Source: a bacterium
Lineage (GTDB): Bacteria; Patescibacteriota; Minisyncoccia; 2-01-FULL-47-10; JBBIMT01
Direction: 5' to 3'
DNA length: 64,000 nt
Assembly: GCA_037443185.1 (NCBI GenBank)
Contig: JBBIOV010000001.1
Location: 10,866 to 74,865, forward strand
Part shown: positions 6,119 to 37,123 of the stretch, one piece after another
How the letters are laid out: each line of letters opens with the position of its first letter
Numbering within the stretch: the stretch's first letter is position 1
Made by a program: the position numbers and the translations under genes
The notes under the pieces: model-generated
The model's input: the letters and a program-made list of their open reading frames with translations, nothing else
Told to the model about the DNA's origin: nothing
The model's database searches: none

Positions 6119-7124
6119 AGTCGCTATAATTATTTTAAATTATAATTGCTGGAAGCATACGATAGAAACAGTCCAATCGGTAATTAAAAATGATTATTCA
6201 AATTTTGAAGTTTTTGTCGTTGATAATTGTTCTACCGATGATTCTTGGCAAAAGTTAAATCAATGGTACGCAACTTTCGGAAGCTTTAGTTTAAAATTAA
6301 AGTCTTCATTTTTTTTAGTACAAAATCCAGTCAATAATGGTTTTGCTGGCGGAAATAATTTTGGTATGAAAATAGCTGCCAAAAAAGGAGCCGACTATTT
6401 TTTAATTTTAAATCCGGATGTTGAGGTGGAAAAAAATTTTTTAAGCGAGATGGTAAAATTTTATGAAAATTCGTTAAAAAGTAAAACTCGAAACTTGTCA
6501 AAACAAAAAATTGGTTTTGTTGGTCCTCGCATTTTTTATTATCATAACCGAAATTTAATTTATTCAAACGGTGGAAAAATCAACTGGAGTTTTACAGAAG
6601 GCAAGCTAATAGATAATGGGGAAAATTTTAAAAATATTGCTTTTGTAACGCCTTTTGCTGTTAAAAATCAAAAAGAGTCAAGGAATAAAGGTGTTAAAGA
6701 AATGCCATTTGAAACTGATTATGTTTCTGGAACAGCACTGTTGATCCATAAAAATGTATTAAATGATATCGGTTTGATGGATGAATCTTTTTTTCTTTAT
6801 TATGAAGACACCGAGTGGGCTTTAAGAGCTTCAAAAAAGGGATATAAACATTTTATCGTGCCTTCTTCTATTATTTATCATAAAGAATCAGTAAGTACTG
6901 GTAAATTTTCTTATAATTACTTTTATTACCACACCCGCAACGCTTTAATGATGGCAAAAAAACACGGCAATATTTTTATCAAAATTTATTTATTTTTTTT
7001 TATTATCCAAAAAATAATAAAACAATTTTTCAAATTGATTTTTGTTCCCTCAAAAAGACTCTGGGCAAAAGCTATTTTAAAAGGAATATGGGATTATCTA
7101 ATTAATCATAAAGGTAAAATCTAA
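6084..7124 (+). CDS. Family 2 glycosyltransferase
   Basis: GT2 N-terminal signature VAIIILNYNCWKHTIETVQSV...VVDNCSTDDS, and a DxD-like YYEDTEW. Confidence 0.6.
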   Translation: MKFGNNRNKMLKVAIIILNYNCWKHTIETVQSVIKNDYSNFEVFVVDNCSTDDSWQKLNQWYATFGSFSLKLKSSFFLVQNPVNNGFAGGNNFGMKIAAKKGADYFLILNPDVEVEKNFLSEMVKFYENSLKSKTRNLSKQKIGFVGPRIFYYHNRNLIYSNGGKINWSFTEGKLIDNGENFKNIAFVTPFAVKNQKESRNKGVKEMPFETDYVSGTALLIHKNVLNDIGLMDESFFLYYEDTEWALRASKKGYKHFIVPSSIIYHKESVSTGKFSYNYFYYHTRNALMMAKKHGNIFIKIYLFFFIIQKIIKQFFKLIFVPSKRLWAKAILKGIWDYLINHKGKI

Positions 7125-10023: not shown

Positions 10024-11076
10024 TTGCTTGTTTCTATGCTTGTTTCTATTAATATTTTAACTTGGAATGCCCAAAAATACATCCGCCAATGTTTAAATGG
10101 CGTTTTTAGTCAATCGTATGATAAATTTGAAATTAATATTGTTGATAACGGTTCAAAAGATAAGACGGTCGCTATTTTAAAAGAAGAATTTTTACCAAAA
10201 TATAAAGGAATAAAGTTGATAGAAAATAAAAATAATATCGGATTTGCGCAAGGACACAATCAGTTAATAAAAATTTCGTCAGGCGATTTAATTTTATCGT
10301 TAAATCAGGATTTAATTTTAGAAAAAGATTATATTAAAAATTCTGTTCCTTTGTTTAAAGATAAATCTATCGGGGCAATGCAGGGTAAACTTTATCGTTT
10401 TGATTGGGATAAAAATGAAATTCAGCAAAACGAAGGTAGGAAAATTATTGATACTACTGGATTGATAATTTTGAAATCACGACGGGTCATTAATAGAGGA
10501 CAAGGACAACCTGATTTGGGACTTTATGAAAATATAGAAGAAATTTTCGGAGTTGACGGTGCGGCGCCGCTTTATCGTCGTCAAGCGTTAGAAGATATTA
10601 AATTGCCATTTATTTTTCAGTCTCTTAATGATGAATATTTTGATTCTGATTTTTTTTCCTACTTAGAAGATGTTGATATCTCCTGGCGTTTACGACTAGC
10701 AGGCTGGAAAATCGTTTATAATCCAAAAGCGATTGGCTATCATGGGAGAGGCGCTAAAGATGTCAAAAATATATTTAATCTCTTTGAATTATTTTTAACA
10801 AGAAAAAATATTAATTCTTTTGTAAAAAAAATCTCCTGGCGTAATAGACGATTAATGCAGCTTAAAAATGAATTTGTTTTAAATATTTTAAAAGATGTTC
10901 CTTTTTGGTTAATAAAAGAAGTTTTGGGATTAATTTATATTCTTTTTTTTGAACCACAAACCCTTAAGGCAATTCCTGAATTTTTTTCAATGGCTCCTAA
11001 AGCGCTTAAGAAAAGAAAATATATTATGAATAATTTAAAAGTTAAACCGCAAGATATTAGGCAATGGTTTCAATGA
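10024..11076 (+). CDS. Family 2 glycosyltransferase
   Basis: INILTWNAQKYIRQCLNGVFSQSY...VDNGSKDKT, and DxD-like YLEDVD. The 5' end carries a 12-nt tandem duplication (MLVSMLVS). Confidence 0.6.
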   Translation: MLVSMLVSINILTWNAQKYIRQCLNGVFSQSYDKFEINIVDNGSKDKTVAILKEEFLPKYKGIKLIENKNNIGFAQGHNQLIKISSGDLILSLNQDLILEKDYIKNSVPLFKDKSIGAMQGKLYRFDWDKNEIQQNEGRKIIDTTGLIILKSRRVINRGQGQPDLGLYENIEEIFGVDGAAPLYRRQALEDIKLPFIFQSLNDEYFDSDFFSYLEDVDISWRLRLAGWKIVYNPKAIGYHGRGAKDVKNIFNLFELFLTRKNINSFVKKISWRNRRLMQLKNEFVLNILKDVPFWLIKEVLGLIYILFFEPQTLKAIPEFFSMAPKALKKRKYIMNNLKVKPQDIRQWFQ

Positions 11077-11077
11077 T

Positions 11078-12100
11078 ATGTTCAAGTCAATTTTGATTAA
11101 AACCTTTTTTGTCGTTCTTATTATCGTGTTTATAATTTTAATTCTTACTGGCTATTTAACATTTAAAACAAATATCGTTTTAGATCAAATTTCTGTTTCT
11201 GAAGATAAAATAAGTACAGATTTTTATCTTCCGAAGGTTGAGACTTTAGATAATTATTTACCAAAATTATCAGAATATAAAGAACCAACCAAAGATCCAA
11301 ATAGAATTAATATTTTATTGCTTGGAATAAGAGGTATTAATGATCTCTATGGTGGAACATTAACCGATACTATTTTGCTTATCTCTTATAAAATAAATTC
11401 GTCGCAAGTAGCGCTCATTTCAATACCGCGAGATATTTACATTAAACTACCGTTTCAAAATCATTGGGTGAAAATTAATGAGGCTTATGCGCAGGGGTTA
11501 AAATTTGGAAGCGAAAGAAGTGGCCTTGAACTTGCCCGTCATGCAGTTCAAAGAATAACAGGAGTAGCAATTGATCATGTAGTGCGAATAGACTTTGAAG
11601 CTTTCAAAAAAACAATTGATTTAGTTGGCGGAATTGAAATTTATTTAGATAAACCTTTTGAAGAAAAAGAACAATTCAAAGGAGCCGGAACTTTTTATCT
11701 GCCAGCAGGAAAAAATATTTTAAATAGCGAACAAGCTCTTTATTATGTGCGGTCACGTTATTCCACAAACGATTTCGATAGAGCAAAAAGAACCCAACAA
11801 GTTTTAATAGCCATTAAAGATAAAATTTTAAAAGATAAGACTTTATTTAACATCGGGAAAATCAACGAAGTATTGAATATTTTGGGAGAGCATGTAAGAA
11901 CTGATATGAGTATTGCTCAAATGAAAAAATATTTTTTAGCATACAGTCATTTCGATTTTTCAAGTATCAAAACGAAAGTTTTCACTGATGCTCCTGACGG
12001 AGAACTTATTTCTCAATTAATTAACGGTATATATGTGCTTTTGCCAAAAGATGGAACTTTTCAAAAAATGCAAGAAGAAGTTCAAAAAATTTTCGATTGA
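11078..12100 (+). CDS. LytR-CpsA-Psr (LCP) family cell-wall glycopolymer transferase
   Basis: N-terminal TM helix, then the LCP core ILLLGIRGINDLYGGTLTDTILLISY...ALISIPRDIYI...IDHVVRIDFEAFKKTIDLVGGIEIYL. Confidence 0.7.
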   Translation: MFKSILIKTFFVVLIIVFIILILTGYLTFKTNIVLDQISVSEDKISTDFYLPKVETLDNYLPKLSEYKEPTKDPNRINILLLGIRGINDLYGGTLTDTILLISYKINSSQVALISIPRDIYIKLPFQNHWVKINEAYAQGLKFGSERSGLELARHAVQRITGVAIDHVVRIDFEAFKKTIDLVGGIEIYLDKPFEEKEQFKGAGTFYLPAGKNILNSEQALYYVRSRYSTNDFDRAKRTQQVLIAIKDKILKDKTLFNIGKINEVLNILGEHVRTDMSIAQMKKYFLAYSHFDFSSIKTKVFTDAPDGELISQLINGIYVLLPKDGTFQKMQEEVQKIFD

Positions 12101-23898: not shown

Positions 23899-25328
23899 TG
23901 ACTGATTATTTTAGAAAAATGTTCTCCCCTTTCATATTCGTTTTTATAAGCATTAAAACTTGCACAAGCCGGTGAAAACAATAAAACCCCTCCTTTGATG
24001 CTATTTAAATAGGCAACCGCTTTTTTAACAGCATCTTCTAAATCATTCGCTTTATTAAATAGAAAATTTCTATTATTTCTCATTTCAATGAGATTAGTCA
24101 TTTTGTCAGAACCACTGCCTGGTATCATTATTAAAGCGCCTGAAAAATTTTCTATTAAATAATCAATTAATTCTGTAAAATCCAATTTTTTATCCTCCCC
24201 TCCTAAAATTAAAGCAACTTTTGTTTTGCCAAATTTTTCAATAATAGTTTTTGATGAACGCATTGTGGCTGTAGGATTTGTTGCGCAAGAATCATTAAAA
24301 AATGAAATTCCATTGGATTCTTTTTCAAGAGTTAATCGGTATTGAAGCCATTTAAAATTTTTTAAATAAATCGGTAAATTTTTAAAATTAGCTCCTAAAA
24401 TGAAAGCAGTTGTTGCAGCACAAAGAAGATTCTCAACATTGTGCTGACCAAAAATTTTTAATTCTTCTAATTTGGAAATGAAATTTTTATTGTGGCCCAA
24501 GAAAATAGAACCATCAGATAAATAAGCACCAGGTTGATAAATACTTTCTTTACTAATAACTTCACTTAAGTCAAATTTACTCGAAAATAAAAATACCTTC
24601 GATTTAGCTTCACTGGCTAATGAAAAAACATTTTTATAATCGAATGGTAAAACCAAAAAATCGTCTTTTTTTTGGTATTTGAAAATATTTTTTTTAGCAG
24701 CGATATAATTTTCCAAGGTGCCGTATTTATTTAAATGGTCATTAAAAATGTTAGTAATAACAGCAAGATTGGGGCTTTTTTTAATAATAGCCAGATCTTC
24801 AAGTTGAAAACTGGAAAGTTCCAAAACCACTAAAGTATCACTTTTAAGTTGAGGTAAAATGTTCAAAACCGATTTTCCAATATTGCCTGCTAAAGCAACC
24901 GGCCCTTTGCTTTTTAAAAGCTCTGCTGTTAAAGCGGCGGTGGTGGATTTGCCTTTGGTGCCAGTAATTCCGATTATGAAAGATGGACAAAATCGAAAGA
25001 AAATGGTAATATCGCTTTCCACTAAAACCCCATGATCTTTAGCAAGTTTTAAATAAGGTGATGTTTTAGAAATAGCTGGATTTTTTATAACAATGTCTGT
25101 GTCAATAAAATTTTCTGGTAGATGTTTTCCTAAAACATATTCAATGTTGTATGCTTTTAATTTTTCGAGGCTTGGTTTTAAATCCTCTTCTTTTTTAATA
25201 TCAGTAACCAAAACTTTTGCTCCATAGCGGGCAAAAAATTCAGCAGCCCCCACTCCTCCACCATGAAGTCCAAGCCCAAAAATCGTTACCTTTTTGCCTT
25301 TAATATCTTTTAAAGTTTTAAGTTCCAT
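23892..25328 (-). CDS. murD: UDP-N-acetylmuramoylalanine--D-glutamate ligase
   Basis: KKVTIFGLGLHGGGVGAAEFFARYGAKVLVTD and P-loop GITGTKGKSTTAAL. Position between mraY and ftsW. Confidence 0.85.
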   Translation of the reverse strand: MELKTLKDIKGKKVTIFGLGLHGGGVGAAEFFARYGAKVLVTDIKKEEDLKPSLEKLKAYNIEYVLGKHLPENFIDTDIVIKNPAISKTSPYLKLAKDHGVLVESDITIFFRFCPSFIIGITGTKGKSTTAALTAELLKSKGPVALAGNIGKSVLNILPQLKSDTLVVLELSSFQLEDLAIIKKSPNLAVITNIFNDHLNKYGTLENYIAAKKNIFKYQKKDDFLVLPFDYKNVFSLASEAKSKVFLFSSKFDLSEVISKESIYQPGAYLSDGSIFLGHNKNFISKLEELKIFGQHNVENLLCAATTAFILGANFKNLPIYLKNFKWLQYRLTLEKESNGISFFNDSCATNPTATMRSSKTIIEKFGKTKVALILGGEDKKLDFTELIDYLIENFSGALIMIPGSGSDKMTNLIEMRNNRNFLFNKANDLEDAVKKAVAYLNSIKGGVLLFSPACASFNAYKNEYERGEHFSKIISHC

Positions 25329-25355
25329 AATAAATGATTTTTTTTGTTTAAATTT

Positions 25356-26372
25356 TTATTGACGTGATAAAAACCAAATAATAAAACCAATAACACAAGA
25401 CATTACAGAGATAATCCAAAATCGTTCTGTAATTTTAGTTTCTGGCCAACCTTTAGCTTCGAAATGATGATGAATTGGAGTAGATAAAAAAACTTTTCTC
25501 TTTAAGAATTTTTTACTTAATAATTGAATGATTACAGACGATGATTCTAAAAATAATACCGGAGCAAAAAAAGGAAGTAAAATCACTGTATTGGTTAAAA
25601 TTGCGACAACTCCTAAAATAGCGCCCAATGATAGTGAACCAGTATCTCCCATAAAAAATCTTGCCGGGTGGATATTAAACCACAAAAAAGCAAGCAATGA
25701 ACCAATAGTTACACTAAGTAATGCTGCTAAATTTAATCTTCCCAAAATAAAAGCGATAATGCCTTGAGCAGTTAAAGCAAAAAGCAAAACTCCGCCAGCT
25801 AAACCATCAATCCCATCAGTTTCATTAGCTGAAAGAGAAGATGCAAGTAAAACTAAAATAAAAAACAAAAACGCCGCAATACTTCCTATTTCTAAATTTC
25901 CCCAAAACGGAATAAATATTGAAGTGAACTCAAGTTTATAAACAAACCACCACGCACAAATTCCACTGATAATCCCGGAGGCTATAATTTTTGATAGTGG
26001 CGAAATTCCTTGACCATTTTTGCTTTTTTTAAAAATTCCATACAAATCGTCGATCAAACCAATTATACCAGCTAAAACCATAACTCCCAGAGGCAAAAAA
26101 GTTTCAGAGCGCGAAAGGAAATTAAAGGGGGTATATGATAAAAAAACAGCAAAAATAAGCACTGTTCCCCAAATTAAAATTCCAGCCATTGTCGGTGTGC
26201 CTGTTTTTTTGATGTGTATTTGGGTAAAAACTGGGGTTTCTGGAGAAATTCTAATTTGCTTACCAAGTTTATGTTTAAAAACAAAATCAGTAAAAACCGG
26301 CGTTAAAAAGATGGTAAAGAGAAACGAAAAAACTGTTAAGACTCCTAATTTTATCAAAATTAACTCGTTCAT
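25356..26372 (-). CDS. mraY: Phospho-N-acetylmuramoyl-pentapeptide transferase
   Basis: Polytopic membrane protein with MraY motifs (PTMAGILIW, GLIDDLYG, HHHFE). Confidence 0.85.
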   Translation of the reverse strand: MNELILIKLGVLTVFSFLFTIFLTPVFTDFVFKHKLGKQIRISPETPVFTQIHIKKTGTPTMAGILIWGTVLIFAVFLSYTPFNFLSRSETFLPLGVMVLAGIIGLIDDLYGIFKKSKNGQGISPLSKIIASGIISGICAWWFVYKLEFTSIFIPFWGNLEIGSIAAFLFFILVLLASSLSANETDGIDGLAGGVLLFALTAQGIIAFILGRLNLAALLSVTIGSLLAFLWFNIHPARFFMGDTGSLSLGAILGVVAILTNTVILLPFFAPVLFLESSSVIIQLLSKKFLKRKVFLSTPIHHHFEAKGWPETKITERFWIISVMSCVIGFIIWFLSRQ

Positions 26373-26399
26373 AAAAAATTAAATAATAAGTTAAAAAAT

Positions 26400-27401
26400 T
26401 CATTGCCAAATAAAACCATCTTTAAGATACGAAATCAAATTTTCGGTATCTGCGTAGCGATTTTGTGAATTCAATACAACTAATATTAATTCCCTGTTGT
26501 CAGGTACTTTAATAATAGCGGCATAATTTTGAAGTGCTTTTTGAGTCGTACCAGTTTTCCCAAAAACTATATCTGGATTATCAATTAATTGATTAGTATT
26601 TTTAATCAATATTTTCCTTTGTGCTAAAGATGAAAGTTCAATTTCTTTAATAGAGAGAATTTTTTTTATAACAGGCTGATTGCTAATAAAATGCAATAAA
26701 GTTGCCAAATCTTCAGCGGTGGAATAATTTTTTTCATCATCCAACCCTATCGGATTTTGGAAATGAGTATTATCCATTTTAAGGCGTTTAGCCGTTTCGT
26801 TCATTTTTTCGACGAAGTTTTCAATGCCAAAATGATGAGCAATGGCGTAAATTGCATTATTGTTTGATTCAATTAAAGCGAATTTTAAAAGAGTTTCTAC
26901 AGAATATCGTTCGCCGGCATAAAATCTTAAAAAACTGCCTTTATAAGCAACATCATCTTGTGTTAATTGGATAATAGTTTGAAGATCAATATTATCTAAA
27001 ATCACTAATGCTGCCATCAGTTTAGTTAAACTACCAATTTGAAGTTTTAATTGTGGATTTTTTTTAAAAAATATCCTACTTGTATTAAAATCTATGACGA
27101 TCGCCGATTTTGCGCTCAATGTTGGAACAAGTGTGTCGGTTTTTAAAATTGGGAAGGAAATAGGTTTTAAAAATGATTCCAGTTCGAAAGATAAATTTTC
27201 ATTTAATGCATTATTGTTTTGAACATTTTTTGCTAGGACGTTTTCGATTGCAACCGCTGATGAATCAGAAGCATTATCTGTTAATAAGAAAAAAATAGCC
27301 AAAATAAAAAGAATCGGAACACAAAATCCCAAAAGCAAAGCAACAAAATAAATAGAAATGTTATTTATTTTTTTCTTTGTTGTGTTTAACATATATTCCA
27401 A
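26400..27401 (-). CDS. D-alanyl-D-alanine carboxypeptidase (S11, PBP5-like)
   Basis: SxxK (GSLTKLM), SxN (ESNNNA) and KTG (GKTGTT) motifs. N-terminal TM. Confidence 0.7.
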   Translation of the reverse strand: MEYMLNTTKKKINNISIYFVALLLGFCVPILFILAIFFLLTDNASDSSAVAIENVLAKNVQNNNALNENLSFELESFLKPISFPILKTDTLVPTLSAKSAIVIDFNTSRIFFKKNPQLKLQIGSLTKLMAALVILDNIDLQTIIQLTQDDVAYKGSFLRFYAGERYSVETLLKFALIESNNNAIYAIAHHFGIENFVEKMNETAKRLKMDNTHFQNPIGLDDEKNYSTAEDLATLLHFISNQPVIKKILSIKEIELSSLAQRKILIKNTNQLIDNPDIVFGKTGTTQKALQNYAAIIKVPDNRELILVVLNSQNRYADTENLISYLKDGFIWQ

Positions 27402-28767
27402 GTTCTTCTAACTGTTCTTTTTCTATTACTGATGGACTATCCATAATAGAAGTTTTACCATTGCCGTCTGTTGGAAAAGGGATTACTTCACGAATATTAA
27501 GTTCATGATTTAAAACACATAAAAGTCTATCAAAGCCCCAAGCGATACCACCATGAGGTGGAGCTCCGAAACTAAAAGCTTCTAACATATGACCGAAATT
27601 TTCCTTGATTTTTTCATCTGATAAACCAATAATTTCAAATACAGCCTTTAAAGCTTCAGGCTGGTGGTTGCGAATACTCCCCCCGCCGATCTCCAATCCA
27701 TTTAAAACAATATCATACTGGGTAGTTAAAATTTTATCTATATTTTGTTTTTTTAAAAGATTTTCCATATGTTCTTCAGTGGGTTTTGAAAATGGATTGT
27801 GGGTAAAAGTCCATTTTCCGTCTTCGTTTTTTTCAAAAAAAGGAAAATCAATAATCCAGCAAAAGGCAAGCAAGTGAGGATCAGTTTTATCTTTTCTAAT
27901 ATCTGGTTTATCAATATTATATTTCTGAATAGCTTCTTTATAAGTGATTTTAGGAAATGGTATCTCTTGGATTTTTTTATGAGGATATAATTTAGTAACA
28001 ATTTCTATCAATAATTTTTCATTTAAATCCATAACATCTTCTCTTGTAACAAAACTCATTTCCATATCAAGTTGTAAAAACTCAAATTGCCTATCTCCCC
28101 GTAAATCTTCATCACGAAAACATTTAGCAAATTGAAAATATTTCTCAAAACCAGAAACCATTAAAAGCTGCTTATATTGTTGGGGCGCTTGGGGCAAGGC
28201 GTAAAATTTTCCTTTATGGAGTCTAGAAGGCACTAAAAAATCTCGCGCTCCTTCAGGAGTACTTTTTGATAAAATTGGAGTTTCAATTTCAATAAATCCT
28301 CTTTTGGATAAATAATTTCTAATAAAAAGTTGAATTTCTGCTCGCTTTTTTATATTTTGTTGTAGGCGATTACGTCTTAAATCTAAATAGCGATATTTCA
28401 AGCGTAAATTTTCATTAATCTCAATTCCCTCGCCCAATAAATCAAATGGTGGAGTTTGAGACTGATTCAAGATTTCTAATTTATCAGCTGATATTTCGAT
28501 TTCTCCGGTTGGCATTTTGTCATTTATCATATTTTCTGGTCTTTTATTTACAATCCCTTCAATTTTCACCACAAACCAATCACGAAGTTTTTGGGCATCT
28601 TTTAGGCTTTCGTTTTTTAAATAAAAAATAACTTGACAAACACCAGAAACATCCTTAATATCGCAAAAGATTATTTTTCCGTGGTCGCGACGTGAAATAA
28701 CCCAACCTGAAATTTCAACCCTTTCCCCGATTTTTTGGGGAGTATCTTTTATGTAAGTTCTTTGCAT
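27361..28767 (-). CDS. aspS: Aspartyl-tRNA synthetase, bacterial-type core but lacking the GAD insertion domain
   Basis: OB-fold N-domain and class II motifs (FRDEDLRGDRQFEFLQLDMEMSF; GGGSIR...GAPPHGGIAWGFDRL). Sequence runs ...YNIDKPDIRKDKTDPHLLAFCWIIDFPFF... with no GAD insert; 468 aa. Confidence 0.8.
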   Translation of the reverse strand: MQRTYIKDTPQKIGERVEISGWVISRRDHGKIIFCDIKDVSGVCQVIFYLKNESLKDAQKLRDWFVVKIEGIVNKRPENMINDKMPTGEIEISADKLEILNQSQTPPFDLLGEGIEINENLRLKYRYLDLRRNRLQQNIKKRAEIQLFIRNYLSKRGFIEIETPILSKSTPEGARDFLVPSRLHKGKFYALPQAPQQYKQLLMVSGFEKYFQFAKCFRDEDLRGDRQFEFLQLDMEMSFVTREDVMDLNEKLLIEIVTKLYPHKKIQEIPFPKITYKEAIQKYNIDKPDIRKDKTDPHLLAFCWIIDFPFFEKNEDGKWTFTHNPFSKPTEEHMENLLKKQNIDKILTTQYDIVLNGLEIGGGSIRNHQPEALKAVFEIIGLSDEKIKENFGHMLEAFSFGAPPHGGIAWGFDRLLCVLNHELNIREVIPFPTDGNGKTSIMDSPSVIEKEQLEELGIYVKHNKEKNK

Positions 28768-28865
28768 AATATTTTTATTCTATCATAAAATAAGCTAGCT
28801 GTAAATTGTTGCTTGAGATTATAATAAACAAAAAATCGCAAAAGCTTTTTAATATTCATTTTAAT

Positions 28866-30476
28866 TTAAATGGCAGTTGGCAATTCAATATGAAAAGTAC
28901 TTCCTTTGCCAATACCTGGAGAAGTCGCATAAATTTTGCCTTGATGGTCTTCGACAACTTTTTTAGCATAATAAAGCCCAAGCCCTGTTCCTTCAGTATA
29001 AAGTTGCGACACTCTAGAGCCGCGGAAAAATTTTTCAAATAATTTTGATAATTCTTCAGTGCTAATTCCGATTCCTGTATCGGTAACATTAATTGTGATC
29101 AATGAATTAATCTGTTTAACTTCAACAATTACACTTCCCTGCTCTGTATATTTTATGGCATTGTCAATAATGTTATAAATAACTTCATACATTTTTTTAT
29201 AATCAAACTTAATTTTTGATAGTGGCTTATCTGGCATATTTAAAACGAAATTCAGTTTTTTGCTTTCGGCTTTTGGTTTTAATTCTTCAAATATTTCTTT
29301 TACAAGGAGTTCTATATTGTTTATTGCAAAATGATATTCAACTTTACCTTTTTCAAGTCGAGAAATATCAAGCAATTCTTCTACCAAACCAATTAACCTT
29401 TCGGTAGTCACTGATAATTTCTCGATAAGTTTTTCTTGGGTTTCTGTAAAAGGACCGAAATCACCTTCCCGCGCTTCCGATAAATAACCTTTAAGATAGG
29501 ATAAAGGAGTTCTTAATTGATGCGAAGCAATAGACAAAAATTCACTTTTAAACTTATCGACCTGTTTTAATTGTTTATTGGTAATTTCCAACTTTTTTAC
29601 TAATTGTTCTATATTTTTACGAGTTGATATCTCTTTTAAAACACTTCTAATTAAAAGAAAACCAAATATTAAAATAAATATTGTTTGGCCTAAAAATAAT
29701 ATAAACCCAAAAATTGTTTTAGTTGTTAATAAATGAACAAGATTTATAATTAAAATAACAAAAATTAACAATTCAGTTGCAGCAACTTTTATATTAAATA
29801 ATTGATAACGGATAATAGCGCCTCCAATAAAAATAAATAATGGTAAGATAAATAATGGAGAATAAGGAACAAAAGCTGGATTATGAAAAAAAACTGTTTG
29901 TATGAAAAGAAAAAATAATAAAAAAGAATAAGTAGTTATTAAACCCAGTCCAATTAGGAACCATTGTTTTTTTAGTAGCCCGACAGCTGAAAGATAATTT
30001 TTTATTATATGAATAAAGGAAAAAACAGAAACCCCAATTAATATAACACTAAAAACTGGCATAAAAAATCCTGGACGAGGCAAAATTTTACCATCGACTG
30101 TATCAATACCCTTAAATCCATAGGGGCTTAATATAATGCTACTAGCAATTAACATTAGTAATAATATAAATATAATTTTTGACTTTGGTATAATAATTTT
30201 TTTTGATGGGAAATTAGTTACGAAAAAAAATAACAGAAAAACCAATTGTGTTGCCAATAAAAGCACTATTCGAATCCAAAAAAGAACTTTTTCACCAACA
30301 ACGTTAATTGAAATATAATTTGCTATAGCCCATGCAATAGTGAAAATTGTGTGCCCCCAAAAAAATCGATTAGTTGCGCTTTTATAATCGTGAAGGAAAA
30401 CGAAAAATCCTAAAAAGGTTAAAACAAGTGAAACAATAAAAGTACTTAATAATTTTAAGTCAACATTTATTATCAT
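28866..30476 (-). CDS. Sensor histidine kinase with a large polytopic N-terminal membrane domain
   Basis: About 7 predicted TM helices, then H-box FLSIASHQLRTPLSYL and G-boxes (GTGLGLYYAKKVVEDHQGKIY...GKGSTFHIELP). No response regulator is adjacent. Confidence 0.75.
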   Translation of the reverse strand: MIINVDLKLLSTFIVSLVLTFLGFFVFLHDYKSATNRFFWGHTIFTIAWAIANYISINVVGEKVLFWIRIVLLLATQLVFLLFFFVTNFPSKKIIIPKSKIIFILLLMLIASSIILSPYGFKGIDTVDGKILPRPGFFMPVFSVILIGVSVFSFIHIIKNYLSAVGLLKKQWFLIGLGLITTYSFLLFFLFIQTVFFHNPAFVPYSPLFILPLFIFIGGAIIRYQLFNIKVAATELLIFVILIINLVHLLTTKTIFGFILFLGQTIFILIFGFLLIRSVLKEISTRKNIEQLVKKLEITNKQLKQVDKFKSEFLSIASHQLRTPLSYLKGYLSEAREGDFGPFTETQEKLIEKLSVTTERLIGLVEELLDISRLEKGKVEYHFAINNIELLVKEIFEELKPKAESKKLNFVLNMPDKPLSKIKFDYKKMYEVIYNIIDNAIKYTEQGSVIVEVKQINSLITINVTDTGIGISTEELSKLFEKFFRGSRVSQLYTEGTGLGLYYAKKVVEDHQGKIYATSPGIGKGSTFHIELPTAI

Positions 30477-30506
30477 TTTTTTAAGAAAGAAATTATTATA
30501 AAAATT

Positions 30507-31538
30507 TTATTTTATAATTTTTTGTTCTAATGGATGTCGAGGAGTAGTTTTGTGGGTTGAGCCAGTTTTTCCCACTGCAAATAAAAATTGCGGAATCTGT
30601 TTTGTATTAATAATTTTTTGCAATCTTTGATATAGTTTCCCCATTTCAATTGATGCTACAAAAATTGATGTCTGCCAACCCCTTGCATTAAATTCCAACA
30701 TAATTCTCTGAGCAATTCTTCCAACATTAAGCCAGATTAATGGATTGTTTGCATTGGCAGTTATAATTACTACCAAAGGCGCCGAATTTAAACTCATTTG
30801 ATTAAGTTTTGACAAAAAAAAGCCTAAATTGAACCATCTTACTAAAGTAGGGAAAATAAATGAAAAAGGAAAAGGCATTTTTAATGCATAGCCAGGAATT
30901 CCATCTTTGCGTCTTGTCAAACTACTACGTAACCATCTAGCCATTTCTTTTCTAAAGGATTTTTTTGCATATGCTATTTTCAAGCCTTCAGCAGTAAGTC
31001 TTGCTATTTCGGAAATTTGAGTTTCGTTTGATATCCAATGAACAGTTATATTGTTTAACTGATACTCATTGTTAATAATTGTAGAAATTTCATTTAAAAT
31101 TTCTACCGGAACTTTGATTGGTTGAAATATCCCCCGAGCGTTTACTCTTTTTGGAATTGTATTCAAAATTTTTCGATAATTATCATTTACTTTGCTACTT
31201 AAATTTTTAAAATATATTGTAGCCAAATGATTACTATCTGTTGTAGATTTCATTGAAATATAATCGAACACACCAAAATATTTTGCCGCCACAATTATAT
31301 TTTCTATAGCACAACCAATACTAATATGTAAATCTCTTTTTTGTGGATCTCCTTCTGGTAAAAGTAATTTAGGATCATAATAGACCTCACATCCTGATTT
31401 TATAATACGAAACAACCAAGGTTGAGTATTATGAGTAGAAGGAGCTAAAATTGCATAACGTAATAAAAATTTAGTTTTTTCTTTTGGGGAAGATAAGGTA
31501 AAAAAATCGTCAGGATTGATATTTCTTATATTATTCAT
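30507..31538 (-). CDS. Nitroreductase-superfamily (FMN-dependent oxidoreductase fold) protein, two-domain length
   Basis: LLRYAILAPSTHNTQPWLFRII and ISIGCAIENIIVAAKYFG match nitroreductase fold motifs. At 343 aa it is longer than classical NfsB-type enzymes and resembles SagB/McbC-like or Acg-like two-domain members. Confidence 0.55.
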   Translation of the reverse strand: MNNIRNINPDDFFTLSSPKEKTKFLLRYAILAPSTHNTQPWLFRIIKSGCEVYYDPKLLLPEGDPQKRDLHISIGCAIENIIVAAKYFGVFDYISMKSTTDSNHLATIYFKNLSSKVNDNYRKILNTIPKRVNARGIFQPIKVPVEILNEISTIINNEYQLNNITVHWISNETQISEIARLTAEGLKIAYAKKSFRKEMARWLRSSLTRRKDGIPGYALKMPFPFSFIFPTLVRWFNLGFFLSKLNQMSLNSAPLVVIITANANNPLIWLNVGRIAQRIMLEFNARGWQTSIFVASIEMGKLYQRLQKIINTKQIPQFLFAVGKTGSTHKTTPRHPLEQKIIK

Positions 31539-31624
31539 TTTTTATAAAATTAATTATAAATTTAATTTTTATTTTAAAAAAAGTAAATATCGTAAATATT
31601 GTTTCGATTATTTCCTTTTGTTAT

Positions 31625-32707
31625 TTATTTTATCATTATCTCATCAAATTTTATTAAACTTCGTCCGCTTGGCAGATTTTCTTCTAAAGCAATCTTGCGT
31701 GCAATTAAAGCGGCGATCCCGGAACTAATAGCAACGGTACTCATTACCTGAGGCCTACCAACTAAGGTTTTTCCAATATTCAATACCGAATTTATAACCC
31801 TTTCAGTTAAGTTTTCTTTTCCAACCAAATCAATAGCGTATTTTTTCTTTTCTTTTTCGGTTATCTGATTACGCATTATGGCATTTAAAATATTTTCATT
31901 CACTTTGCCGTTGAAAAATTTTACATCTGGCTCAATATCGTATCTTTCAATGTCTATCAAGACATTATCTCCTAAATTCGTAAGCATAACAACTGGTATT
32001 TTATTTTTTTTAGCTAATTTCCTAATTAAAATTTTTAATTTAAAGTCATCTATTACTTCAAAAATAAGTTTTGGTCTTGGATAATTTTCTATAAAATCTT
32101 GGAGATTTTTTTTATTTAGACCCTCATGATAAGAATAAATTTTAATATATGGATCTATCTCCATAATTTGTTCCTTTATAATATCAATTTTATGTCTGCC
32201 GATATCTTTTAATGAAGCTTTTACCCTGTTTAAATTAGTGGTGCTTAAAGTATCAAAATCAGCTAACTTAATATTTTTAGAAAATCCGTTATAGATTAAA
32301 GTTGTAGCAATATTACCACCAACTGATAAACCAGCAATAGCAACCGTAAAATTTCTTAACTTTTTTTGCTCTTTGGCTGTTATGATATTTTGATTTCTAT
32401 TGGTTCTTAAAAGATAATTTTCTTGTTCTGAAAGAGTATGAATCAAAGTATTACTCCAAGGATAATAAATCCAATCGCCGCTAATTTTAACATCTTTTTT
32501 ATTTTTGTATTTGATAAATTTCTTAAAGTTTTTTTTAAAAATCGATTGAGGATTTTTTATTTCAAATAATTCTTTAAGTTGTTTTTGATAAATATCAATC
32601 ACTTTGGGTTTAAAATAATCCTTTAATCTTTGAACGTCTTTAAAGTTATAATTGCCCTCTTTGAAAATTTTAATGTTGTTAATTTTTCTGATCATTTTTT
32701 TACCCAT
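31625..32707 (-). CDS. E1-like ThiF/MoeB/HesA-family adenylyltransferase with a ~115-aa N-terminal extension
   Basis: Rossmann VAIAGLSVGGNIATTLIYNGF and the ThiF signature KLADFDTLSTTNLNRV. The extra N-terminal domain is of unknown family. Confidence 0.6.
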   Translation of the reverse strand: MGKKMIRKINNIKIFKEGNYNFKDVQRLKDYFKPKVIDIYQKQLKELFEIKNPQSIFKKNFKKFIKYKNKKDVKISGDWIYYPWSNTLIHTLSEQENYLLRTNRNQNIITAKEQKKLRNFTVAIAGLSVGGNIATTLIYNGFSKNIKLADFDTLSTTNLNRVKASLKDIGRHKIDIIKEQIMEIDPYIKIYSYHEGLNKKNLQDFIENYPRPKLIFEVIDDFKLKILIRKLAKKNKIPVVMLTNLGDNVLIDIERYDIEPDVKFFNGKVNENILNAIMRNQITEKEKKKYAIDLVGKENLTERVINSVLNIGKTLVGRPQVMSTVAISSGIAALIARKIALEENLPSGRSLIKFDEIMIK

Positions 32708-34209
32708 TTTTGTTTAATGCCTGGTTTAAAAAATTCGGGATGCTCGTAAGGCCAAAATACTATTTTAGGAAAAGCTCGTTCTTTTAAAAAATTAGAAAGT
32801 TCACGATATTCAGCGTTTTTTTCTTGCAGATTTTGAACTAATCTCTTTAATAAACGATTTTTTAGATGATATGGTATTGACTCAATACTTCTCTTTAATT
32901 CTATATTAATTTCCAAATATTGATTTTGCTTTTTATCAAATTTCGTTAACATTGTAAATTTACCAGTTAAATAATTGTTGAACGGATTTTCTAAAAGGAC
33001 TTCTCTAATTGTTTCTGGATAAACTTGCAAACCATAAAGAGTTGTAGAAAAATCGTCGCGCTCAAATACAAAAACAAAAGGAAGTTCATTTAAAGTATAA
33101 GCAATGCCGGCTTTTTTGGCTTCATAAAAAATATCTATGTCATAGCGACGCAGTATTTCAATAAGTTCACTAAAAGAGTAAGCACCGCCATGATCCCCGA
33201 CTTTATATCTTATTAAGGGAATAACATTATTGCCAGTTAATATTATATCACCATTTTCCGATTCAAATCCTATAAATAAAGGATTATACTGCGCTAAAGT
33301 TGGTGTTTTATTAATAGCGCCGAAAATGTCATTAAATAACGCTTTATTTTTTACCGCTAAACTTCTTATTAAAATACTTAAAGGCGTTTCAAAAGCCATA
33401 GCCCCAATATCAGCTGTTCCATAAATATTCATTGTGTCTAAAAATCTATTTTTAAGGCCTGCTTTGCTAACTAAATAATCTCGAAAATCTTCAGAAAAGG
33501 TTTCTGCCGCAAAAATTAATCTTAAGTTTAATTTTTTCAAATCAATTCCTTCAGCTTGAGCATCATCAATGACATCTTTAATAAAAGGAGGATAACCTAT
33601 AAGTATTACTTGTCTATAAAATCTCGCTAAATTTTTCAAAGCCTTAAATATTTCTTGCTTATTTATGCCAGGAGTAATAATCGATAAAGGAAAATTTAAT
33701 CTGTATGCAGCAAGTTCCAATGCTTTATATGTTATGAGCCCTCCAATCCAAACACCCATTCCAAAAGCAACTATAACTAACACAGGGAAATTACTGTTTT
33801 TAATATTATTATAATTTTTCAAAAATTGTTCCAGTATTATTGAGTATTGCCAATCTAATTGATTATTGCGTGGAAAATAAAATGGTTCCCCTGTTGAACC
33901 TGAAGTCGATGTAAAGATTAAAGGCTTATTTAAATGGCCTTCCCAACAAAGTTCGTTTAACAGATTTCTTCTTAAATAATTTTTTTTGTTAATAAAGGGT
34001 ATTTTTTTAAAATCTCTCCAGCTACGAATCAAAGAAGGATTAATTTTTTTGCTTTTAAGGAACTTTTTATAAGCTGGTACATAACGACTTGCTAAATGAA
34101 AAAGGCGAAGGGACAATTTTCTCTGTTCTAAAGACCAATAGTCAGATTTTTTTTTGGTAATTGAGTTTATGATTTTTTTTGTTTTGGAAGTGTTTTTTAA
34201 AAAAATCAT
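32692..34209 (-). CDS. PaaK / coenzyme-F390-synthetase / CapK-like adenylate-forming enzyme
   Basis: ANL-subfamily motifs FTSTSGSTGEPFYFP, IVAFGMGVWIGGLITYKALE, IFAAETFS, NIYGTADIGA, comparable with PaaK blocks. Confidence 0.6.
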   Translation of the reverse strand: MIFLKNTSKTKKIINSITKKKSDYWSLEQRKLSLRLFHLASRYVPAYKKFLKSKKINPSLIRSWRDFKKIPFINKKNYLRRNLLNELCWEGHLNKPLIFTSTSGSTGEPFYFPRNNQLDWQYSIILEQFLKNYNNIKNSNFPVLVIVAFGMGVWIGGLITYKALELAAYRLNFPLSIITPGINKQEIFKALKNLARFYRQVILIGYPPFIKDVIDDAQAEGIDLKKLNLRLIFAAETFSEDFRDYLVSKAGLKNRFLDTMNIYGTADIGAMAFETPLSILIRSLAVKNKALFNDIFGAINKTPTLAQYNPLFIGFESENGDIILTGNNVIPLIRYKVGDHGGAYSFSELIEILRRYDIDIFYEAKKAGIAYTLNELPFVFVFERDDFSTTLYGLQVYPETIREVLLENPFNNYLTGKFTMLTKFDKKQNQYLEINIELKRSIESIPYHLKNRLLKRLVQNLQEKNAEYRELSNFLKERAFPKIVFWPYEHPEFFKPGIKQKWVKK

Positions 34210-35294
34210 TTCATTTTTGTGCCTTTAAAATAGCTTTCAGCTATTTCATCGGCAATTTTATTGGTAGACTTATTATTTTGTTTGGAAAGATTGAGGATAT
34301 TAATGACGGTTTTTTTTATCTGAAATATTTTATTTAATACCCTTTTTTTATTATATCCATCTTTTTCTAATTCAGCTACTACATTAATTAAACCACCTGC
34401 ATTAGCTACGTAATCAGGAACATAAACAATTTTTTGTCTAAAAAACCAGTCGCCCACCTTTTGTTCAGCTAATTGATTGTTTGCCCCGCCACAAATAATT
34501 TTTGCTTTAATTTCACGAGCTTTTTTTAATGAAAATTCGTTTCCTAAAGCACAAGGCGAATAAATATCAACTTCTAAAGAGTGGATTTTTCTTGGGTTAA
34601 CAATTTCTACTTTTTTAATTATTTTCTTTGTTTGAATGAGAGCAGTTTCATCAATGTCAGCAATATATATTTGCGCTCCAGCGTCAAACAAAAGTTTAGC
34701 CAAAGTTCTTCCAACTTTTCCAACTCCCTTAATAGCGACTTTTAAACCAGAAAAGGAGTCTTTATTAAAAACAAACGAAACAGCACCTTGCATAGCGTAA
34801 AAAACACTTAAGGCAGCGTAGGGCGAAGGATCTCCAGCTAAAGACGGATTACCAATAAAAAATTTCGAATATTTCAACATAAATGAGACATCATTTTCAG
34901 TCAATCCAACATCTTCGCCAGTATAAAACTTTCCTTCAAGTTCATTTATCTTTTTCGCATAGGCTTTTAAGAGGTTGGGAGTTTTATCTGTCTTAGGATT
35001 TCCAATAATAACACCCTTACCTCCTCCGAAATGAACTTTAGCGATAGCACATTTATAGGTCATAGCCTGAGAAAGCCTTAAAACATCCTTCAAGGCTTGG
35101 GTTTCTGACTGATAAGCAAACATTCTTGTACCTCCAACAGCAGGCAAACCTAAATCATCGTTATGTATTGCAATAAATCCTTTGAGATTTACTGAGGCAT
35201 CTTCAATTTTAATGACTAATTTATGATTATCGAATTCTTTAAATTTTTTCAAATAATTAGAATCTATTAAATTCATAAATAAAACAGACATCAA
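34206..35294 (-). CDS. Glu/Leu/Phe/Val-family amino-acid dehydrogenase (leucine-dehydrogenase-like size)
   Basis: Catalytic K-box VHFGGGKGVI and dinucleotide fold IKGVGKVGRTLAKLLFDAGAQIYIADID; 362 aa. Confidence 0.7.
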   Translation of the reverse strand: MMSVLFMNLIDSNYLKKFKEFDNHKLVIKIEDASVNLKGFIAIHNDDLGLPAVGGTRMFAYQSETQALKDVLRLSQAMTYKCAIAKVHFGGGKGVIIGNPKTDKTPNLLKAYAKKINELEGKFYTGEDVGLTENDVSFMLKYSKFFIGNPSLAGDPSPYAALSVFYAMQGAVSFVFNKDSFSGLKVAIKGVGKVGRTLAKLLFDAGAQIYIADIDETALIQTKKIIKKVEIVNPRKIHSLEVDIYSPCALGNEFSLKKAREIKAKIICGGANNQLAEQKVGDWFFRQKIVYVPDYVANAGGLINVVAELEKDGYNKKRVLNKIFQIKKTVINILNLSKQNNKSTNKIADEIAESYFKGTKMK

Positions 35295-35629
35295 ATTACT
35301 GATGTCTGTAATTAATAGTGTTATATGAAAATAAAGCCCAAGTTATTTGTGTGTTTTGTTTAATAGCTTGGTGGAAATTTTTAAAAAATTCCAAAAAATG
35401 TTTCCTTTTTAAAATTTCCATTTTAATTAGATATTGAAAAATTTCCTTTATTTATCTTTATTTTTCCTTCTTTAATTATAATACCACAAAAATAATTTTA
35501 AGCAAGCTTTGTTAATAAAATTCGTGGTTTGGCAAGCTCTAAAATTTGCAAACTTCAACATTTTTAAGTTTAACTTTATAAAAATGGTTTACATTTTGAT
35601 AAAAATTCATTTTTATAAAAATATTTTTG

Positions 35630-35657
35630 TTGATTTTTAAAGGAAATTAATTATAAT
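35630..35657 (+). promoter_or_regulatory. Candidate sigma70-like promoter for rpmH (-35 TTGATT, 16-nt spacer, -10 TATAAT); would give a near-leaderless mRNA
   Basis: TTGATT 35630-35635 and TATAAT 35652-35657. The ATG is 9 nt after the -10 element. Confidence 0.3.
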
Positions 35658-35666
35658 AGAAACAAT

Positions 35667-35801
35667 ATGGTAAAAGGCTCGAAATTAAAAAAAATTAAAC
35701 GAAAAAGAGACCATGGCTTTTTAAGCCGCTCTAAAACGAAATCCGGAAAAAAAGTTCTAAAACGACGACGAAAAAAGGGTAGACACAAATTGACAGTATA
35801 A
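35667..35801 (+). CDS. rpmH: 50S ribosomal protein L34 (44 aa; below the ORF-track size cutoff)
   Basis: MVKGSKLKKIKRKRDHGFLSRSKTKSGKKVLKRRRKKGRHKLTV matches the L34 consensus (..KR..HGF..R..TK.GR.VL.RRR.KGR..LTV). Confidence 0.75.
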   Translation: MVKGSKLKKIKRKRDHGFLSRSKTKSGKKVLKRRRKKGRHKLTV

Positions 35802-35821
35802 TACTTCAAAAACTATTTTTT

Positions 35822-37123
35822 TCAAGCAATAACAGTTTTGCCCATAAATTCTTGAAGTGGCTTTGGAATTTCTATTGAGCCATCTTTTTTTTGATAATTT
35901 TCCATTATAGCCAATAGCGGTCTAGTGTTGGTAATAGCTGTGGCAGAAATTGTATGACAATATTTTATTTTGTCTTTATCCTTATATTTTATATTTAATC
36001 TTCTTGCCTGAAATTCCCAAAGATCAGAATTAGACATAACTTCCATATAACTTTGAGAAGAAGGCACCCAAACTTCCAAATCAAATTTGCGATAAGTTGG
36101 CATTCCTACATCCCCTGAACACATATCAAGAATACGATATGGTAGACCTAAATCTTGTAAAATTTCTTCTTCAATATCTAAAACTTCAAATATTAATTTC
36201 TCGGAAGTTTCCTCACTAGTAAATAAAATCATTTCTATTTTATCAAACTGATGGACTCTCTTGATACCGCGAACATCTTTGCCCCAGGAACCAACCTCTG
36301 TGCGAAAACATGGCGAATAACCGACATATTTTCGGGGTAGTTCTTTAATATCAAAAATTGTATTATGGTGATAAGCTACAATTGAAACTTCAGAGGTGCC
36401 TACTAAATATTTCGGCTCTTTTTCAATCTCTTTATCTTTATAACTTTCATCCCCGATTTCAAGTCGATAAATATTTGAAGATTCAAAAGGTAAATAACCG
36501 GTTCCTTCAAGCGCAAAACTTTTTACGATTACCGGGGGAATAATAGGAATAAATCCTTTATTAATTAATTTTTTTAATACAAAAGAAAAAAGTGCAAACT
36601 GCATTAAAACAAGATCGTTTTTTAAATAATAAAACCGCGAACCAGAAACCTCAGCAGAAGTTTTTGTATCAATTAAATTATGTAAAGTCCCAAGCGCTAA
36701 ATGATCTTTTGGAGTAAAATCGAATTTAGTTTTTTTACCCCATTCTTTTATAACAACATTTTTTTTGGAATTTTTGCCACGAGGCATATTAGGACTTACA
36801 ATGTTTGGTAGTCTTAAAGTAAGATTTTTTAAATTTTGCTCAACGTTCTTTAAAATCTCTTCCTTTTTTAAAATATCGCTTTTAATCTCTTTTAAAATTG
36901 CAATAATTTTTACATCTTTAATTTTTGAAAGGTCTTTTTTAATCTCTTCATTTAATTGATTGCGTTTTTTTCTTAAAGTGCTGATTTCAGTGGCAATCTT
37001 TTTTCTTTCTTTTTCTAAAATAATAATTTGATCCAATTTAAAATCGGCAGGGTTTAAGTTTCTGTCTAAAATGCTTTTTTCATATTCTTTTCGATTGTTA
37101 ATGATATAATCAATATTAATCAT
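35822..37123 (-). CDS. serS: Seryl-tRNA synthetase
   Basis: N-terminal coiled-coil arm, class II motifs (YSPCFRTEVGSWGKDVRGIKRVHQFDKIEM), 433 aa. Confidence 0.9.
   Translation of the reverse strand: MINIDYIINNRKEYEKSILDRNLNPADFKLDQIIILEKERKKIATEISTLRKKRNQLNEEIKKDLSKIKDVKIIAILKEIKSDILKKEEILKNVEQNLKNLTLRLPNIVSPNMPRGKNSKKNVVIKEWGKKTKFDFTPKDHLALGTLHNLIDTKTSAEVSGSRFYYLKNDLVLMQFALFSFVLKKLINKGFIPIIPPVIVKSFALEGTGYLPFESSNIYRLEIGDESYKDKEIEKEPKYLVGTSEVSIVAYHHNTIFDIKELPRKYVGYSPCFRTEVGSWGKDVRGIKRVHQFDKIEMILFTSEETSEKLIFEVLDIEEEILQDLGLPYRILDMCSGDVGMPTYRKFDLEVWVPSSQSYMEVMSNSDLWEFQARRLNIKYKDKDKIKYCHTISATAITNTRPLLAIMENYQKKDGSIEIPKPLQEFMGKTVIA

Follow-up and report, generated by a model that had tools for sequence, protein, structure and literature searches.

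That ThiF/nitroreductase enzymes form oxazolones came to light only in 2021, and the known cases are from Pseudomonadota, Actinomycetota and Planctomycetota. The founding oxazolone synthetase is OxzB (bioRxiv 10.1101/2020.06.11.147165), TyzB/TyzC is a split version from M. tuberculosis (PMC10404671), and TrzS, which is Rv1355c, fuses a ThiF cyclase to a flavin oxidase in M. tuberculosis, M. smegmatis and the Rhodococcus TrzAS system (PMC12856293). All three have been shown biochemically to cyclize and desaturate N-acyl amino acids (PMC12856293, PMC10404671, bioRxiv 10.1101/2020.06.11.147165); in vitro, TrzS cyclizes N-acyl tryptophan in an ATP-dependent reaction and desaturates it in an O2-dependent one to give tryptazolones (PMC12856293). 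An N-acyl-amino-acid synthase, namely OxzA, TyzA, TrzA or NasY, is part of all clusters described so far for oxazolones or N-acyl dehydrotyrosines (PMC12479983, PMC12596934). The physiological role of oxazolones has been called a major unresolved question, and the authors of the TrzAS study have suggested a role as signals (PMC12856293). Here we analyse a five-gene operon on the minus strand (28866-35294) of a 64,000-nt stretch of a Patescibacteria contig (JBBIOV010000001.1, positions 10,866 to 74,865; hereafter the window), in which a predicted split oxazolone synthetase stands beside a PaaK-like ligase, an amino-acid dehydrogenase and a polytopic sensor kinase. Scans for open reading frames (ORFs), flanking genes and receiver domains covered the whole window.

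The genes run in the order D-P-T-N-H, where D is the dehydrogenase, P the PaaK-like ligase, T the ThiF-like enzyme, N the nitroreductase-fold protein and H the histidine kinase, and this is also the commonest order among related loci. A scan with one genome per GTDB species returned 259 encoding stretches, and 80 loci were fetched; all ORFs of 81 non-redundant loci were then clustered, with the 45 loci that had sufficient flank on both sides (full loci) used for counts. The cluster recurs on one strand in the 81 Patescibacteria loci, across genomes labelled Paceibacteria, Microgenomates and Magasanikbacteria. Among the full loci, the ThiF-like gene adjoins the PaaK-like gene on the same strand without exception (45/45), and that strand also carries a nitroreductase-fold gene in 40/45, a HisKA_7TM kinase in 38/45, the dehydrogenase in 25/45 and receiver-only response regulators in 20/45. 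Sampling begun from the ThiF-like protein found the PaaK-like gene adjacent, in the same cluster, at 4/4 loci. The orders P-N-T-H, N-T-D-P-H, T-D-P-N-H and T-N-P-H also occur, and the association therefore outlasts rearrangement. The neighbourhood comparison proposed in an earlier note, which had been made from the window's letters alone, thus shows a cluster kept with its order shuffled across Patescibacteria, and the suspected origin of the DNA in the candidate phyla radiation (CPR) was borne out. The five-gene operon is a real unit, conserved across many of these ultra-small bacteria. Mirror-tree correlations among the components were moderate (r 0.2-0.6) and not discriminating.

Genes lying between the PaaK-like and ThiF-like genes in loci L006 and L013 are unrelated housekeeping or mobile genes and were rejected as pathway members. 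Loci L030, L091 and L094, together with many 'Candidatus Saccharibacteria' TPA_asm records, carry the typical Patescibacteria cluster. Some cluster contigs are titled Gammaproteobacteria, Kapabacteria or Nanoarchaeota, probably through binning or labelling errors rather than as true occurrences.

Profile searches with Pfam and NCBIfam, which upheld the family calls of the earlier note, place the ThiF-like adenylating enzyme (31625-32707, minus strand, 360 aa) closest to the synthetase TrzS. Its ThiF domain begins at residue 104, and the protein scores 273.5 bits on NF005901, the Rv1355c family model, over model positions 13-339 of 722. The curated NF005901 cut-off of 476 fits the full 722-aa fusion and lies beyond the reach of a half-length protein. 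All other ThiF, MoeB, TcdA and SAMP-E1 models give at most 80 bits, the MoeB and ThiF models scoring 42-80, below their cut-offs; PRK14851, a model of the ThiF-nitroreductase fusion, reaches just 66 bits. The NF005901 match covers the whole N-terminal half of the model, including an extension of about 100 residues ahead of the ThiF domain: the extra domain reported earlier is present, but it belongs to the Rv1355c family and not, as was thought, to an unknown one. Aligned directly with a Rhodococcus protein of the Rv1355c family, a homologue of TrzS, the window protein shares 36% identity across 289 aa (E 1e-61). Among 66 homologues, conservation is at least 90% at R101, R104, N105, G126, G130, D150, D152, N160, R161, K173 and D220, and D220 aligns with the Asp of the CDS motif in the Rhodococcus protein, making it the counterpart of TrzS D217.

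The ThiF-like protein contains no cysteine and no CxxC motif; no ThiS or MoaD gene lies nearby, and no small beta-grasp gene recurs among the loci. On these grounds, and from the sub-cut-off scores, we rejected a MoeB-, ThiF- or E1-type enzyme that activates a sulfur carrier or ubiquitin-like protein. An AlphaFold2 model has an E1 fold with a mean predicted local distance difference test (pLDDT) score of 88.9. In the sequence search MccB reached just 25 bits, and the likeness of MccB and PaaA to the protein is confined to its core. A profile of the N-terminal extension found no PDB match; with the extension's fold beyond separate comparison, the absence of a peptide recognition element (the RRE of RiPP systems, in which peptides are made by ribosomes and modified after translation) is weakly tested. 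The best structural match was AclA (9EGB), for which no paper was found.

The nitroreductase-fold protein, a flavin mononucleotide (FMN) oxidoreductase of Acg/Rv3131 subtype (30507-31538, minus strand, 343 aa), is encoded next, 86 nt downstream of the ThiF-like gene. An Acg-like nature had been suggested from its length, and the protein does score above the cut-off of the Acg family model NF047509 (201.1 bits against 199, model positions 2-317 of 319). Its best PDB match is Acg itself (2YMV, over residues 27-337), a single-chain pseudo-dimeric fold, and an APSTHNTQPW motif is conserved together with R131 and R135. By alignment, the protein is colinear with the C-terminal half of the Rhodococcus Rv1355c-family protein. 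Among the 81 loci, nitroreductases are of TrzS/OxzB-oxidase-like subtype in 39, of Acg/Rv3131-like subtype in 21, the window included, and of both subtypes in one, so that 39 of the 61 nitroreductase-bearing loci have the TrzS/OxzB-like form. This subtype, found in two thirds of the related loci, scores 170-218 bits on the flavin-oxidase halves of Rv1355c and PRK14851, and in many related CPR loci the top model of the nitroreductase is PRK14851 at 177-218 bits. We read the near-exclusive distribution of the two subtypes as displacement within one functional slot. A pair of examples is the gene at 10161-11228 of locus L001 and that at 30507-31538 of the window; the Acg-like copy usually lies directly after the PaaK-like gene.

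Judged by these sequence comparisons, the ThiF-like and nitroreductase genes are a split counterpart of OxzB, TyzB/TyzC and TrzS, the characterized oxazolone synthetases, with the nitroreductase as the putative flavin-dependent desaturase partner. The earlier statement that the operon matches no nameable pathway therefore fails, the pair corresponding to a known oxazolone-synthetase module. We consider it somewhat probable that the pair carries out cyclase/desaturase chemistry on an acylated amino-acid-like substrate.

The PaaK-like gene (32692-34209, minus strand, 505 aa) is the anchor of the cluster. Its product has no Pfam hit and a weak PaaK/F390-synthetase match. It scores 47.7 bits on the PaaK model TIGR02155, against a cut-off of 646.3, no paa genes lie near it in the window, and its match to PaaK is in the fold alone; we accordingly rejected its identification as the phenylacetate-CoA ligase PaaK. 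The AlphaFold2 model (pLDDT 81) retrieved PaaK1 (2Y27, E 5e-20), BT_0428, the 2-hydroxyisobutyryl-CoA ligase HCL and ClxA (9S45) with Foldseek, and lower in the results the amide bond synthetase McbA, the coronafacic acid ligase CfaL and GH3.6. ClxA is a PaaK-fold enzyme solved with an aryl acid and its adenylate. Motifs at least 90% conserved in the family are TSGSTG (102-107), YGxAD (263-267; YGTAD in the window), GD (338-339) and K499, the last of which would be the A10 catalytic lysine. The two-domain fold and these motifs make the protein an adenylate-forming enzyme of the ANL/PaaK fold at the superfamily level. The family comprises 518 representative clusters (50% identity) at E<=1e-30, with thousands of relatives at 51-82% identity, nearly all of them in Patescibacteria.

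What the ligase may do is suggested by what its neighbours lack. An N-acyl-amino-acid synthase of the OxzA, TyzA, TrzA or NasY type is absent among the recurrent neighbours of the loci, and neither a TrzA-like acyltransferase (Rhodococcus query) nor a GNAT acyltransferase (query from a Streptomyces neighbour) was found in the window or the 81 loci in a search limited to BLASTP. The position beside the ThiF-like gene that such a synthase would hold is taken by the PaaK-like ligase. An amide-forming role for it is possible, if somewhat short of an even chance.

The PaaK-like gene also stands out in a comparison with the closest relative (L005, 278-1804). DNA identity is 94-98% over window positions 25000-34500 but 77-86% within the gene, the change being abrupt and coinciding with the two ends of the gene, which looks like replacement of a one-gene allele by recombination. 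The kinase sensor is 97% identical at the amino-acid level in this relative and shows no co-divergence with the PaaK-like gene.

The amino-acid dehydrogenase (34206-35294, minus strand, 362 aa, listed start TTG) has ELFV_dehydrog_N and ELFV_dehydrog domains in Pfam, and its best PDB matches are a leucine dehydrogenase (LeuDH; 3VPX, 264 bits) and a tryptophan dehydrogenase (TrpDH; 5B37, 247 bits). The catalytic residues K81, K93 and D128 are conserved in 41 dehydrogenase homologues from the clusters. Gly126 occupies the pocket position of LeuDH Ala113 and is also Gly in TrpDH 5B37, which gives a weak hint, from sequence, of bulkier substrates. Eight dehydrogenase-free loci have a class I/II aminotransferase beside the PaaK-like gene (L093 at 2365-3420; L072, L083, L084, L063, L066, L076 and L050). 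The aminotransferase is an analogous replacement of the dehydrogenase, and the step retained is the interconversion of an amino acid and a 2-oxo acid.

Gene fusions tie the components further. A dehydrogenase::PaaK-like fusion of 847 aa (P0371) occurs on nine contigs from several Parcubacteria assemblies, which are metagenome-assembled genomes, in the context N-[D::P]-T-hydrolase-H (L096 6001-8544; L097 2048-4591). A PaaK::ThiF fusion (P0381) and a ThiF::PaaK fusion (P0478) were found on one contig each and may be artefacts of assembly or gene calling. An alpha/beta-hydrolase lies between the ThiF-like gene and the kinase in some clusters, and a methyltransferase occurs in one (L091 7100-7993; L092 3613-4428 and 7040-7921; L096 9839-10711; L049 14005-14898); these may supply tailoring or ring-opening steps.

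The last gene encodes a polytopic sensor histidine kinase (28866-30476, minus strand, 536 aa) with HisKA_7TM (28.7 bits, at the cut-off), HisKA and HATPase_c domains. By hydropathy, residues 9 to 276 hold eight to nine transmembrane segments, and the external loops are small. Conservation extends to H319, the phospho-acceptor of the dimerization and histidine phosphotransfer (DHp) domain, to the N, G1 and G2 boxes, and to S33, W49, Y54, P90, P118, F121, F142, G178 and P212 in the membrane domain, which overall is nearly as conserved as the catalytic core (30% versus 37%). The ligand of HisKA_7TM domains is not known (PMC5847659). A receiver-domain profile found no hit among the ORFs of the window, so the earlier report of a kinase with no response regulator is true of the window but does not extend to its relatives: 34/81 loci, and 20/45 of the full loci, have one to three tandem CheY-like, receiver-only regulators a short way upstream of the PaaK-like gene (for example L041 6728-7953, L018 7484-7912 and L033 7498-7899).

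Building on the homology to TrzS and OxzB and on the conservation of motifs, cluster and fusions, we propose, at roughly even probability, that the operon encodes a small-molecule pathway centred on a split oxazolone synthetase and wired to a membrane sensor kinase, with putative substrates, product and ligand. The dehydrogenase, or the aminotransferase in some lineages, would interconvert an amino acid, hydrophobic or aromatic, and the corresponding 2-oxo acid. The PaaK-fold ligase would adenylate a carboxylic acid and pass the acyl group to an amino acid, directly or via a thioester, to give an N-acyl amino acid; the acid could be the 2-oxo acid from the preceding step, in which case an N-2-oxoacyl product would form. 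The cysteine-free ThiF-like enzyme would then adenylate the alpha-carboxylate, allowing the amide oxygen to close a 5(4H)-oxazolone ring, and the nitroreductase-fold flavoenzyme would desaturate the bond between C-alpha and C-beta. Finally, the polytopic kinase would detect the product, which would be hydrophobic, or else an associated state of the membrane, and signal through receiver-only regulators that this genome would encode elsewhere. That an amino acid or 2-oxo acid is activated and modified in a process coupled to a sensor had been the guess of the earlier note, and it fits the neighbourhood, the fusion of dehydrogenase to ligase and the aminotransferase replacement. The kinase as receptor for the pathway product is a tentative assignment that we hold at well under even probability. 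Less probable still, and frankly doubtful, is a self-contained Patescibacteria signalling circuit in which an imported amino acid is converted, without CoA or fatty-acid metabolism, into an N-(2-oxoacyl) or N-acyl amino acid and on to a labile unsaturated oxazolone that a 7TM kinase would report to CheY-like receivers.

Several observations weigh against this proposal. The window nitroreductase is of the Acg subtype and scores just 63 bits on the oxidase half of Rv1355c (TrzS). Known desaturases of this kind use O2, and most Patescibacteria inhabit anoxic or micro-oxic environments. The PaaK-like protein has a mean pairwise identity of 54%, far above the ThiF-like protein at 42% and the nitroreductase at 29%, a pattern unusual for secondary metabolism. 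Distant PaaK-like homologues also occur without a ThiF-like gene, and the ligase may therefore have a role independent of oxazolone chemistry. In Actinomycetota, such homologues adjoin a flavin adenine dinucleotide (FAD) monooxygenase and a TetR/PadR regulator, with no ThiF or nitroreductase context in those checked, and in Gemmatirosa a homologue adjoins an Acg-type nitroreductase only. The ligase may instead have CoA-ligase activity that feeds an unrecognized acyltransferase, and whatever the kinase controls or answers to may have no connection with the product.

Two of these homologues call for comment of their own. On plasmid 1 of Gemmatirosa kalamazoonensis (L088 6694-9347), the Acg nitroreductase is followed by the PaaK-like homologue (27% identity), with no ThiF-like gene, and the pairing of ligase and nitroreductase therefore exists outside Patescibacteria. 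A kinase that neighbours the PaaK-like homologue in Nonomuraea is a soluble, unrelated protein and was discarded.

The main live alternative, which we regard as unlikely, keeps the same biosynthetic core and denies the kinase its part as receptor: the kinase would sense envelope, nutrient or host cues and have no more than the transcript in common with the enzymes, and the product, instead of a signal, would be an antimicrobial, a lipid-like molecule with a protective role or a reactive donor of acyl groups. A HisKA_7TM domain without a known ligand (PMC5847659) leaves room for such cues. DNA-binding regulators are absent from the cluster and its vicinity, relatives having the receiver-only regulators alone; the alpha/beta-hydrolase or methyltransferase of some clusters would suit natural-product tailoring, and N-acyl dehydrotyrosines of the stieleriacine type are reported to be antimicrobial (PMC12856293, citing earlier work). 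Against this, the kinase stays with the enzymes through rearrangements, in 38/45 loci, its sensor domain is conserved, and streamlined genomes would rarely retain an unrelated operon gene over such distances. An improbable reading takes the operon for salvage or catabolism of amino acids or aryl acids, in which the dehydrogenase yields a 2-oxo acid, the ligase is an ordinary acyl-CoA ligase, the ThiF-like enzyme and nitroreductase perform an unrelated step and the kinase reports amino-acid supply. Databases do label the ligase 'phenylacetate--CoA ligase family protein', its nearest solved folds are CoA ligases, its 54% identity resembles that of housekeeping proteins, and the cluster sits among aspS, serS and rpmH with a G+C content equal to its surroundings. 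Yet the PaaK equivalog score is a small fraction of the cut-off (47.7 against 646), the 81 loci have no recurrent gene of a CoA pathway, such as one for a thiolase or a 2-oxoacid:ferredoxin oxidoreductase, and the ThiF-like/nitroreductase pair, whose closest characterized relatives make oxazolones, would be left without a role.

An E1-like enzyme that activates and a nitroreductase that oxidizes also recall RiPP-like maturation or modification of a protein C terminus, as in thiazole/oxazole-modified microcins (TOMM), microcin C and pantocin. We consider this very improbable, given that neither a YcaO protein nor an exporter recurs in the cluster, that the sole small upstream ORF, of 41 aa, is not conserved in the relative L095, that MccB scores 25 bits where the Rv1355c model scores 273, and that the N-terminal extension is of the Rv1355c family, its profile being without a PDB match. 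As for a coincidental juxtaposition of housekeeping genes (a leucine dehydrogenase, MoeB/ThiF, an NfsB-like reductase and PaaK), every protein does come from a large and common superfamily. The cluster is nevertheless conserved with shuffled order, gene fusions exist, and the ThiF-like protein has neither a cysteine nor a ThiS/MoaD gene nearby; the conserved cluster, the fusions and the aminotransferase replacement together refute coincidence, to which we give next to no probability.

At the level of the DNA, the operon has the compact layout described earlier, with five packed ORFs. The dehydrogenase and PaaK-like genes overlap by ATGA, read directly in the sequence, the overlap of the PaaK-like with the ThiF-like gene is 16 nt, and the remaining gaps measure 86 nt and 30 nt. 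An alternative start of the ThiF-like gene at ATG 32695 (Met5) would instead create a second ATGA overlap with the PaaK-like gene. The block is flanked by serS and aspS, with uniform G+C of about 29%, and is divergent from rpmH (35667-35801, plus strand). The divergent intergenic region, the presumed site of promoter and leader, spans 35295-35666; it is 372 nt long rather than the 370 nt first given. A scan of 28600-35900 for consensus promoters and terminators was uninformative in this 29% G+C DNA, the counts equalling the shuffled expectation (promoter sites 45 versus 39 expected). PADLOC defence models found just generic E1 and HATPase domain similarity.

Immediately upstream of ATG 35276 is a stable leader hairpin (35284-35309, minus strand), whose 11-bp stem is followed by UUUUAUUUA. 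RNAfold gives it -16.3 kcal/mol (z -4.4), and the relative L095 has an equivalent hairpin (around 6893-6925, z -5.6) with two compensatory pair changes; its form is terminator-like or attenuator-like. As a general element of the cluster it was not recovered, occurring in just 5/40 loci against a 5% background, and an Rfam search at E<=1 over 28500-36000 gave no match, the hairpin included. The ATG at 35276 is probably the likelier start of the dehydrogenase than the listed TTG, because the TTG sits within the hairpin. The 41-aa ORF (35296-35421, minus strand) ends inside the hairpin, just before the dehydrogenase gene; it is unconserved in L095, which is 74% identical, and is for that reason probably a spurious product of AT-rich DNA.

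The locus places an oxazolone enzyme pair, physically tied to a sensor kinase, in genome-reduced Patescibacteria with very little biosynthetic capacity. It offers a candidate route to N-acyl amino acids that would be independent of CoA, or at least of an acyltransferase, and a candidate oxazolone receptor with which the idea of oxazolones as signals becomes testable. A plausible function would fall to a 518-cluster family now labelled 'phenylacetate--CoA ligase family' or 'hypothetical', and small-molecule signalling in ultra-small bacteria would gain an experimental handle. Were the signalling circuit true, it could provide episymbionts with a quorum-sensing or host-proximity signal, and it would be the first physiological role of bacterial oxazolones. 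Our literature searches returned nothing that links the cluster or oxazolones to Patescibacteria.

Of the known systems, TrzAS offers the nearest family for the ThiF-like protein, N-terminal extension included; the adenylation Asp is shared and the oxidase half is colinear with the nitroreductase. Here, however, cyclase and oxidase are encoded separately, with an oxidase of Acg subtype; no TrzA acyltransferase accompanies them, the host phylum is Patescibacteria, and the operon further comprises an amino-acid dehydrogenase, a PaaK-fold ligase and a sensor kinase. TyzACB (PMC10404671) and the NasY/ThiF/nitroreductase clusters (PMC12479983), which make stieleriacines, thalassotalic acids and kyonggic acids, likewise have ThiF and nitroreductase as separate adjacent genes; an N-acyl-amino-acid synthase is their hallmark, whereas we found none here, and they have no kinase. 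OxzAB of Pseudoalteromonas rubra shares the ThiF plus nitroreductase module and makes oxazolones from N-acyl aromatic amino acids (bioRxiv 10.1101/2020.06.11.147165), but OxzB is a fusion and is paired with the acyltransferase OxzA. Our ligase has the two-domain fold and ANL motifs of the PaaK-fold ligases PaaK1 (2Y27), BT_0428, 2-hydroxyisobutyryl-CoA ligase and ClxA (9S45), from which it differs in being 15-17% identical in structural alignments, below every curated cut-off and about 70 residues longer than PaaK. The pairing of a small-molecule synthase with a kinase built on a bundle of transmembrane helices and lacking a large extracytoplasmic domain is presumably a likeness to CqsA/CqsS, LuxM/LuxN and LqsA/LqsS. 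We take the resemblance to those pairs to be one of arrangement, with no sequence relationship, other chemistry and, here, receiver-only outputs and a putative signal role. The oxazolone-synthetase core is thus already known; new here are the PaaK-fold ligase as its proposed feeder, the dehydrogenase/aminotransferase supply and the dedicated sensor kinase.

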